From Vulcanimicrobiota bacterium (GTDB lineage: Bacteria > Vulcanimicrobiota > Vulcanimicrobiia > Vulcanimicrobiales > Vulcanimicrobiaceae): 64,000 nt of DNA. The stretch is taken from the NCBI GenBank assembly GCA_963820825.1, contig CAWGBN010000008.1, positions 576,001-640,000 of the forward strand, written 5' to 3'. Position numbers and translations under genes: made by a program. Below are positions 56,859 through 58,183 of the stretch, in pieces. The notes under the pieces are model-generated. The model saw only the letters and a program-made list of their open reading frames with translations, did not search any database and was not told the origin of the DNA. Positions within the stretch are counted from its first letter, which is position 1; every line of letters starts with the position of its first letter.

Positions 56859-56992
56859 ATGCAACCTTTTTCGCTTCTCTGCGGTAGAAGGGTTTGCATC
56901 GGCCAGGAATCTGTGAGACACTCCTTGCCGTCCTCAAGCGCGATCTTTCGAGTGGTCGATAAGTTGCGCCCACCGAAAGATAGGTTTCAATC
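56859..56992 (+). promoter_or_regulatory. Candidate structured 5' leader of the DEAD-box helicase gene
   Basis: Three stems at 56859-56899, 56901-56929 and 56943-56981; the last abuts the SD-like AGGT at 56982-56985. Confidence 0.45.
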
Positions 56993-58183
56993 ATCTCCAT
57001 TTTCTTAGAGCTTCCCCTGGATGCTGCCATACGTCGCGGCATCGAAGACCTTCACTATAAAGAGCCCACGGCTATCCAGCGAAACGCCATTCCCATTGCT
57101 CTGGCCGGCCGCGACGTCTTTGCCAGCGCTCCAACCGGCAGCGGCAAGACCGCGGCCTTCGGCATTCCGTTACTGCAACGACTGCTCGCCCGACGCGCCG
57201 ACCGGCGTGCCGCGCTGATCCTGACGCCGACCCGCGAGCTGGCGCAGCAAATCGCGGAGCATCTTCGGCAGTTGGCAAAACACACCAGCCTGCAGATCAC
57301 GCCGATTTACGGCGGGGTGGCCATGAAACCGCAGATCAAGGCGATGCGCCGCGGTACCGACGTTATCGTCGCAACGCCCGGACGGCTCATCGATTTGATG
57401 CAGCAGGGCGAAGCGCGTCTCGACAACGTTGCTATTCTCGTGCTCGACGAAGCGGACCGTATGCTCGACATGGGGTTCTTACCGGCCGTAAAGCGCGTTG
57501 TCGCCAAACTCCCAGCCGACCGGCAAACGCTCTGCTTTTCGGCAACGCTCGGAAGCGCGGTGGTTCAGCTTGCACGCGAATTTCTCCGCGATCCCGTGCG
57601 CATCAACTTGGCACCGCCAACGCCGGTAGCAACCGTAACCCAGTGGGTATACGAAGTGGAACCGCACAAAAAGACCGATCTTCTGGTGGATCTGCTCAAA
57701 GACGGACGCGTCTTCAACGCAATCGTTTTTACGCGGACTAAGTCGCGGGCCGAGCGCGTCGCCGGTGCTCTGATGCGGCATCGCGTCGATGCGGAGCGCA
57801 TTCACGGCGATCGTTCGCAGGCGCAGCGCTCGCGAGCGCTCGAGGCCTTTAAGAAGGGGCGCTACCAGGTCTTAGTCGCGACCGACGTCGCCGCGCGAGG
57901 CCTCGACATCGACGATCTCGGACACGTCATCAACTACGACGTCCCCGCCGAGCCCACCGATTACTTGCATCGCATCGGACGTACGGCGCGCGCTCAAAAG
58001 ACCGGCGACGCGATTACGTTCGTTTCGCGTGACGAAGCCCGCTCGTTTGCACGGATCGAAGGCGCAATCGGCACGTCTTTAGCGCGCAGCGAGCACGGTT
58101 TCATGGAGCCCGCGTCCGATCGAGCGGTTGCGGTCGCGCCGCCGGTGCGTCGCCGGTCATTTCAGCGACGGCGTCGTCGCTAA
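56993..58183 (+). CDS. DEAD-box RNA helicase (RhlE-like) with probable non-canonical ATC start
   Basis: Frame open from 56984: Q motif FLELPL...[47 protein letters not shown]; in-frame TAG at 56981-56983. Confidence 0.9.
   Translation: [396 protein letters not shown]

Follow-up and report, generated by a model that had tools for sequence, protein, structure and literature searches.

A DEAD-box RNA helicase gene of Vulcanimicrobiota with a probable AUC start codon and a leader module shared with infA

The helicase gene and its reading frame

We analyzed a stretch of 64,000 nucleotides (nt) from a Vulcanimicrobiota bacterium (assembly GCA_963820825.1, contig CAWGBN010000008.1, positions 576,001 to 640,000 of the forward strand), hereafter the window, which contains a gene for a DEAD-box RNA helicase whose frame lacks a canonical start codon over its conserved 5' part. 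Plain coordinates refer to the window, whereas those with a contig label (C1, C2 and so on) refer to the source genome, G000, which comprises 2.98 Mb in 9 contigs and is 85% complete. The gene and its immediate 5' context are composed as follows.

56981..56983, plus strand: in-frame TAG that closes the helicase frame on the 5' side, seen in sequence and translation
56982..56985, plus strand: weak Shine-Dalgarno (SD)-like AGGT, 7 nt before the proposed start codon; AGG or CGG is kept within the genus
56993..56995, plus strand: proposed start codon ATC (AUC), the aligned codon being ATC in 19 and ATT in 5 of 24 loci
56993..58183, plus strand: coding sequence (CDS) of the DEAD-box RNA helicase, 396 amino acids, stop codon TAA at 58181-58183, basic C-terminal tail

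A mechanical list of open reading frames (ORFs) yields the helicase only as 57272..58183 (303 amino acids), beginning at a TTG that is in frame with the TAG at 56981-56983, 291 nt or 97 codons upstream. The codons that follow the TAG are GTT TCA ATC ATC TCC ATT TTC, the TTC at 57002 encoding a Phe, and the helicase frame contains no ATG, GTG or TTG from 56984 to 57271. The first-pass annotation had described this open frame, the order of the codons between the stop and the Phe, and the AGGT ahead of the ATC; sequence reading and translation agree on all of these. Its further claim that a start at TTG 57272 would drop the Q motif and motifs I and Ia was borne out by the Pfam analysis of the extended frame, translated from 56984. 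The DEAD domain covers residues 29-193 (PF00270, E 2.8e-51, 174 bits against a cut-off of 26) and Helicase_C residues 230-337 (PF00271, 117.7 bits against a cut-off of 23.5). The Q motif (the upstream Phe plus PTxIQ), motif I (GSGKT) and motif Ia, as these elements are named in DEAD-box proteins, can all be read in this translation. Since the domain already begins at residue 29, the product of TTG 57272 would be devoid of PTAIQ, GSGKT and PTRELA.

The helicase is the sole close DEAD-box gene in the source genome, the next match being only 27% identical (E 3.3e-18). It reaches none of the NCBIfam equivalog cut-offs for RhlE, CshA, DbpA, SrmB and CsdA (bits, with cut-offs in brackets: RhlE1 399 (750), CshA 397 (646), RhlE 390 (743), DbpA 389 (524)). 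The protein is RhlE/CshA-like and stands outside every equivalog.

A run of 93 codons free of ATG, GTG and TTG, which together make up 4.55% of the internal codons of the genome, has a probability of about 0.013. It is the orthologues rather than this value that provide the decisive support for a real start-less frame.

Conservation of the AUC/AUU codon among orthologues

A protein search of 40 relatives returned intact-frame orthologues in 21 of them, that is, in 22 of 41 genomes including G000. The 23 orthologous loci (G011 has two) were each aligned to the helicase frame of the window. Seventeen loci are 83-91% identical to the helicase and two further genus members 58%; the remaining four, three of them from a second family and the fourth from a third, are 55-57% identical. 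None of the 23 contains an internal stop. At position 56993, 18 of these loci have an aligned ATC and the remaining 5 an ATT. Another locus (L031), from a named Vulcanimicrobiota metagenome-assembled genome (MAG) met in a scan of one genome per species, also has ATC, so that ATC or ATT is present in 24 of 24 loci. In L031, a stop five codons upstream is followed by AGA CGA CCG AAC ATC TCT ACA TTC, again without a canonical start.

The neighbouring codons are not conserved. The column at 56990 reads AAC, GAC, AAT, CAC, CGC, CGT, GTT, ATC, ACC, CCC or TCC, and the column at 56999 reads ATT, ACC, ACT, GCC, ACA or AAC. The upstream frame is bounded by a stop 2-10 codons before the ATC or ATT in 13 loci in all, the distance being 2-3 codons in five (L001, L007, L011, L012 and L013) and 8-10 codons in seven (L006, L015, L016, L019, L020, L024 and L026). 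In ten of the 23 loci, the frame from the upstream stop to codon +30 is devoid of any canonical start. Downstream TTG, GTG or ATG codons, where present (+9 to +16), are unconserved in position, and their use would cost the conserved Phe. The residues I1, F4, L9, L20, T26, I28 and Q29 as well as the P-loop are invariant in eight orthologues that share 55-87% identity, indicating that the region 5' of TTG 57272 is coding.

The ATC at 56993 sits three codons before the Phe of the Q motif. Among 80 helicase loci of the same one-genome-per-species scan, the majority of which belong to other phyla, 56 by visual count have a canonical start exactly two codons before this Phe (M-x-F); the ATC/ATT codon thus stands where the N-terminus is expected. 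The nearest named records belong to Candidatus Elarobacter, Baltobacteraceae and Vulcanimicrobiota (53-59% identity), and we assign the lineage to Vulcanimicrobiota (Eremiobacterota). Helicases of the sister clade start canonically, with ATG in L028 and L029 and TTG in L030 (N-terminus MQ[PT][ND]F), so that the weak start is derived within the phylum.

Taken together, translation very probably starts at AUC 56993, giving MSIFLELPL, as had been proposed from the letters of the window. The orthologue alignment, searched for ATG, GTG or TTG in the 56993 column, returned none in this clade, and a sequencing error or private mutation at this position is excluded by 24 independent loci. Contigs of relatives that cover the start region number 2, 1, 2 and 3 in three metatranscriptome runs and one moss metagenome (at least 80% likeness). 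Their differences fit orthologue indels at 56985-56992, and none falls on 56993-56995 among the matches listed. The best share of the window in any indexed public run was 0.08 (of 64 words), so that only contigs of relatives were seen.

We consider it improbable that a different non-canonical codon close by, namely ATC 56990, ATT 56999 or CTG 57017, serves as the start. All three are in frame and 3' of the TAG, and ATT is found at the 56999 position in many genus loci. However, 21 of the 24 loci have a codon in the 56990 column that is not near-cognate, the 56999 column is ACC, ACT, GCC, ACA or AAC in about half of them, and a start at CTG 57017 would lose the conserved Phe; the 56993 column alone holds a near-cognate codon everywhere. 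That no full helicase is made, either because the gene is a decaying pseudogene or because TTG 57272 yields the only product, would agree with the output of gene callers limited to ATG, GTG and TTG and with the decayed 5' remnants in two relatives (G004 and G014, see below), but is hardly credible given the open frame at 23 of 23 loci in 22 genomes, the invariance of the Q motif and motifs I and Ia over the orthologues, the standing of the gene as the only close DEAD-box helicase of its genome, and the fact that a DEAD-box protein without these motifs could not bind ATP.

With respect to decoding, the AUC at 56993 would be read by fMet-tRNA with a third-position mismatch, in the manner of infC. 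The initiator tRNA of the genome is normal, with the anticodon CAT, a C1:A72 mismatch and an anticodon stem that contains three G-C pairs (GGG:CCC), whereas tRNA-Ile(GAT) is an elongator of the ordinary type. No initiator-like tRNA-Ile for AUC/AUU was found in the genome, which at 85% completeness does not show its absence; a dedicated initiator for these codons was set aside on this basis. Separately, ARAGORN lists at G000:C8:455475-455550 on the minus strand a tRNA-like gene whose anticodon has four bases (ctga) and to which no amino acid is assigned. The 3' end of the 16S rRNA reads ...GGATCACCTCCTTTCT, and GAAAG (56975-56979) and AGGT (56982-56985) are each complementary to part of it, GAAAG being the complement of CUUUC in the tail ...CACCTCCTTTCT. 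SD use is sparse in this genome, GGAG being present upstream of 48 of 274 unambiguous starts.

A probable promoter and leader module shared with infA

About 160 nt upstream of the helicase are conserved in the genus. This region, together with the gene that follows the helicase, holds the following features.

56894..56899, plus strand: promoter-like -35 hexamer TTGCAT, aligned with TTGACA in distant orthologues
56914..56922, plus strand: extended -10 element of TG (56914-56915), one base and GACACT (56917-56922), 17-nt spacer after the -35
56928..56992, plus strand: inferred 5' leader of about 64 nt, its start placed 6-7 nt after the -10 element
56938..56955, plus strand: invariant GCGC and 5' arm of an inverted repeat (ATCTTTCG, a bulged A, GTGG), pairing with 56970-56981 in the minimum-free-energy fold
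56970..56981, plus strand: 3' arm of the inverted repeat (CCAC CGAAAGAT), which includes the purine tract GAAAG at 56975-56979
58245..58556, plus strand: CxxC-x17-CxxC zinc-ribbon gene, 103 amino acids with a Gly/Arg-rich linker, 61 nt after the helicase

A strict consensus promoter scan reported no promoter here, and the promoter assignment rests on conservation. Distant orthologues follow the pattern TTGACA-N18-TGnCATAGT, their -10 equivalents being TGaCATAGT or TGtCATAGT. The copies of the module in front of infA or CxxC genes have TTGCGG or TTGCGC at the -35 position and TGaGAGAAT, TGaGATAAT, TGaGACAAT or TGgTATAAT at the -10 position. Two RNA-library contigs, one from each of two studies, start at 56928 (X23 record 10) and 56929 (X22 record 3), while others begin at 56911 or run through the promoter sequence; these ambiguous 5' ends give a weak hint of a transcription start near 56928.

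Within the leader, GCGC and TCTT are invariant in 24 leaders. The minimum-free-energy fold is a 12-bp hairpin of -19.4 kcal/mol, the outer arms pair in 21 of 24 single-sequence folds, and 94.9% of the cells are paired in a model-based alignment of 28 leaders. RNAalifold, run on a MAFFT alignment, recovered only the GCGC:GCGC pairs. It is possible that the leader forms an RNA hairpin, and equally possible that it is an operator-type inverted repeat in the DNA. A known cis-regulatory RNA family was discounted: Rfam 15 gave no curated match for the leader, and the sole match in 56300-57300 is narK (E 5.4, 14.8 bits against a gathering cut-off of 43.2) on the minus strand inside the CDS. Two upstream reading frames were likewise rejected. 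A start at ATG 56859 combined with a frameshift would involve an ORF 5' of the inferred transcription start, and relatives read AGCGCAACC in place of the ATG. Coupling to a leader ORF from GTG 56952 fails in that this unconserved frame is closed after four codons (AAGTAG) in many relatives.

The first 14 nt of the leader occur exactly twice in the genome, with an exact second copy of GCGCGATCTTTCGA at G000:C8:14784. A covariance model, R1, was built from 17 genus leaders. It recovers the helicase leader (E 3.6e-22) and the segment C8:14778-14841 (E 1.3e-7), and no further strong copy in this genome. At the second copy, the promoter TTGCGG-N17-TGaGAGAAT is followed by infA, the gene for translation initiation factor IF-1, and then by a paralogue of the CxxC-x17-CxxC gene. 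In the 40 relatives, scanned with stricter filters and with matches counted at E <=0.001, R1 has 29 matches in 21 of 41 genomes, all of the genus. Of these, 17 precede the helicase, 9 precede infA (with the CxxC gene following in 7) and 3 directly precede the CxxC gene. The model also weakly matches the leaders of distant orthologues that start with ATC or ATT and those of the canonically starting L029 and L030, so that the leader is older than the weak start.

The infA genes of this module themselves appear to begin with near-cognate codons. At 8 of 8 distinct sites the start is ATA (4), ATC (3) or ATT (1), preceded at 6-7 nt by a strong SD sequence (AAGGGAGAG, AAGGAG or ATAGGAG). Canonical alternatives are unconserved in position; L212 has none within 45 codons, and in L213 an ATG two codons upstream directly abuts the SD sequence. 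To our knowledge, no infA with a near-cognate start has been described. The infA products of the genus carry a basic N-terminal extension of about 25 residues (G000:C8:14778-15500, outside the window; L189 and L209-L220).

Two of the nine infA cases, in G004 and G014, consist of a helicase-type leader, a decayed helicase 5' remnant and then infA. These loci, L209 (G014:C1:1342967-...) and L210 (G004:C163:16620-...), retain the leader with its ATC and about 60 codons of the helicase N-terminus, followed by infA and the CxxC gene. Elsewhere, both genomes carry only a helicase of 58% identity, and the genus-type helicase seems to have been deleted at L209 and L210.

The zinc-ribbon protein encoded behind the helicase matches TIGR04272 (8e-19) with its two CxxC pairs. 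Its gene follows the helicase in 5 of 22 loci of relatives. Paralogues in relatives are located directly behind the leader or behind infA or the helicase. The CxxC-x17-CxxC protein may bind RNA. In small proteins of Methanosarcina, this domain binds zinc (PMC12704099).

Near-cognate starts in the lineage and possible regulation of the helicase

Weak start codons are also found in further genes of the lineage, of which infC, encoding initiation factor IF3, and rho show the deepest conservation beside infA and the helicase.

G000:C6:47403-48041, plus strand: infC (loci L221-L250), its start right behind a terminator-like GCGCC-T-run
G000:C9:83339-84808, minus strand: rho (loci L128-L156), with the extension LQTEHRPN...RRRRSRRRHH...

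The start of infC is ATA in 25, ATC in 4 and ATT in 1 of 30 loci, with GGAG 7-8 nt upstream, so that the logic of the IF3 type exists in this class. Internal Ile codons are ATA in only about 4% of cases; the predominance of ATA at infC and infA therefore identifies these codons as starts. In the 29 loci of the class, the conserved N-terminal extension of Rho has CTG as its first codon 28 times and TTG once. A conserved GAGAGA lies before the CTG, in-frame stops occur 3-5 codons upstream in 13 of the 29 loci, and rho probably starts at CUG on this evidence.

We additionally screened one genome for ORFs that measure at least 200 codons from stop to stop and include a start-free stretch of 30 codons or more. 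Among 1741 ORFs that look coding, 521 have their first canonical start 30 or more codons in, and the helicase ranks 22nd. Pfam was applied to 18 top-ranked ORFs of the 521, and in 7 the domain begins before the first canonical start. Besides rho, these are the following six genes of G000.

C2:57824-58861, minus strand: MtnA/IF-2B gene
C8:155867-156565, plus strand: TENA/PqqC gene
C3:101622-103031, minus strand: RumA-like gene (RumA TRAM)
C5:11117-11770, plus strand: MoxR gene
C8:420277-421221, minus strand: BrkB/YihY gene
C1:13603-14868, minus strand: MGDG synthase gene

Candidate ATA, ATC, ATT or CTG starts are present in five of the six; none was found in the RumA-like gene, which may be frameshifted. 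TrmD proved to be a false positive of the screen, and an aminotransferase and a TonB-dependent receptor were ambiguous. For mtnA, the start is ATA in G000 and ATT in the nearest relative, while most of the other 28 loci have ATG, GTG or TTG. G036 counts only toward the genome tallies for rho, mtnA and infC, and none of its loci was used.

Based on these data, we propose that the helicase would be driven by a promoter of its own (TTGCAT and TGaGACACT, separated by 17 nt) and preceded by a leader of about 64 nt able to form a 12-bp hairpin, and that the weak start codon and weak SD sequence would keep its synthesis low. Synthesis would then depend on the stringency with which near-cognate codons are rejected by the 30S subunit, IF3 and IF1, comparable to the autoregulation of infC, and would be sensitive to IF3/IF1 proofreading, growth state and 30S maturity. 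DEAD-box helicases such as SrmB and CsdA help ribosome assembly in Escherichia coli. It is conceivable that helicase synthesis would rise when 30S subunits are immature or under-proofread, which would close a loop. Autoregulation by IF3 targets the AUU/AUC start of infC, and nutrient limitation and ppGpp selectively depress non-AUG starts, AUU being affected at low temperature as well (PMC5499595). Loss of the 30S assembly factors RbfA or KsgA in E. coli is reported to raise near- and non-cognate initiation (PMC6868393). The occurrence of the same promoter and leader module before infA and the CxxC gene suggests that the helicase is probably co-regulated with the initiation machinery, and infA and infC are, like the helicase, started by ATA, ATC or ATT. 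We put forward regulation through the start codon itself, by scarcity, IF3/IF1, growth state or 30S maturity, only tentatively. The link to initiation fidelity or ribosome status that the first-pass annotation had suggested is supported circumstantially.

Several observations weigh against such a regulatory role. The SD sequence is weak, and its AGG or CGG is limited to the genus, with nothing comparable in the orthologues of 55-58% identity. The ratio of ATC to ATT at the start (19:5) matches internal Ile usage (ATC 77%, ATT 19%, ATA 4%) and thus holds no start-specific signal, unlike the ATA enrichment of infC. The hairpin is no stabler than shuffled sequence (z -0.85), and no covariation was detected, 0 of 14 pairs having changed on both sides in 28 leaders, the same as in shuffles. 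Hairpin and start codon are about 150-200 nt apart at the infA copy, which weakens masking of the ribosome-binding site by the hairpin as a general mechanism. The same leader precedes canonical starts in L028, L029 (ATG) and L030 (TTG), so that leader and weak start are separable. Finally, ordinary metabolic genes of the same genome lack canonical starts, and close relatives differ in whether mtnA starts canonically or with ATA/ATT; a lineage-wide tolerance of weak starts may therefore account for part of the pattern.

As regards the leader alone, a DNA operator for a dimeric repressor, acting on transcription and independently of the start codon, is a serious competitor, though we hold it to be somewhat less probable than its opposite. 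Both arms of the inverted repeat are nearly invariant without compensatory pairs, R1 matches the reverse strand too, as it would for a palindrome, and the element always lies just 3' of the conserved promoter. On the other hand, the arms are 14-20 nt apart, the inner stem differs in distant relatives and still pairs in their own folds, the outer arms pair in most single-sequence folds, and RNA-library contigs span the element; none of these points is decisive.

With respect to the start codon, it is conceivable, if rather unlikely, that the weak start is real and carries no specific regulatory meaning, an ancestral ATG having been lost in a lineage that tolerates near-cognate starts, with subsequent drift between ATC and ATT. 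The 7 of 18 tested ORFs with a domain upstream of the first canonical start, the recent turnover at mtnA and the ATG or TTG retained by sister-clade helicases behind the same leader speak for this explanation. However, a single base change would restore ATG, and it has occurred at none of the 24 loci, whose protein identity extends down to 55%. Moreover, the genes whose near-cognate starts are conserved most deeply do not form a random sample, in that infC, infA, rho and the helicase all encode RNA or translation factors.

In this lineage, start-codon stringency could in principle act as a regulon-wide signal over IF-1 and IF-3 (each ATA/ATC/ATT), Rho (CUG) and the helicase (AUC/AUU), the ratio of IF3/IF1 to (immature) 30S subunits setting their synthesis. 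We regard this wider scheme as doubtful. If true, it would constitute a homeostatic loop over ribosome-building and proofreading factors, wider than the single-gene infC loop of E. coli.

Judged from its sequence, the helicase is a further member of the near-cognate-start genes of the infC and pcnB type, having no usable ATG, GTG or TTG and a near-cognate codon conserved in all loci. Like infC, it is an essential RNA or translation factor gene with a phylogenetically conserved AUH-type start. In contrast, infC of this class has a clear GGAG 7-8 nt upstream where the helicase has at most AGG, and its feedback through IF3 is direct, whereas that of the helicase could only be indirect. In enterobacteria, the AUU start of pcnB, which encodes the poly(A) polymerase of E. 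coli, has been described to limit expression. The two genes share the character of an RNA-metabolism enzyme with a weak AUH codon as sole usable start; unlike in pcnB, the helicase start is conserved over several families of another phylum and is accompanied by a conserved leader. A third comparison concerns the cold-shock gene deaD/csdA of E. coli, which likewise encodes a DEAD-box helicase and is expressed behind a conserved 5' leader of its own. The E. coli genes infA and csdA are part of a single stress response and have canonical starts. The leader described here has no sequence or Rfam match. Literature searches turned up no account of a DEAD-box helicase that begins at a near-cognate codon, and none of start-codon usage in Eremiobacterota.

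These findings also bear on genome annotation. Gene callers limited to ATG, GTG and TTG clip the helicase to a 303-amino-acid fragment without its ATP-binding motifs, and they will likewise clip infA, rho, mtnA and further genes of this little-known phylum of soil bacteria, so that functional inventories drawn from such MAGs are biased. A deeply kept weak start on the only DEAD-box helicase of the genome, combined with a leader shared with infA, provides a concrete test case and raises the question of whether IF3-dependent start discrimination co-regulates several RNA and translation factors beyond infC. Worth following are the leader common to helicase and infA and the way in which near-cognate starts cluster on infA, infC, rho and the helicase.

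On the other side of the promoter, none of the 22 loci of relatives has a SLATT-domain gene beside the helicase; in the window, such a gene (NF033634, 5.3e-28) lies divergently at 56013-56522 on the minus strand, 5' of the helicase.

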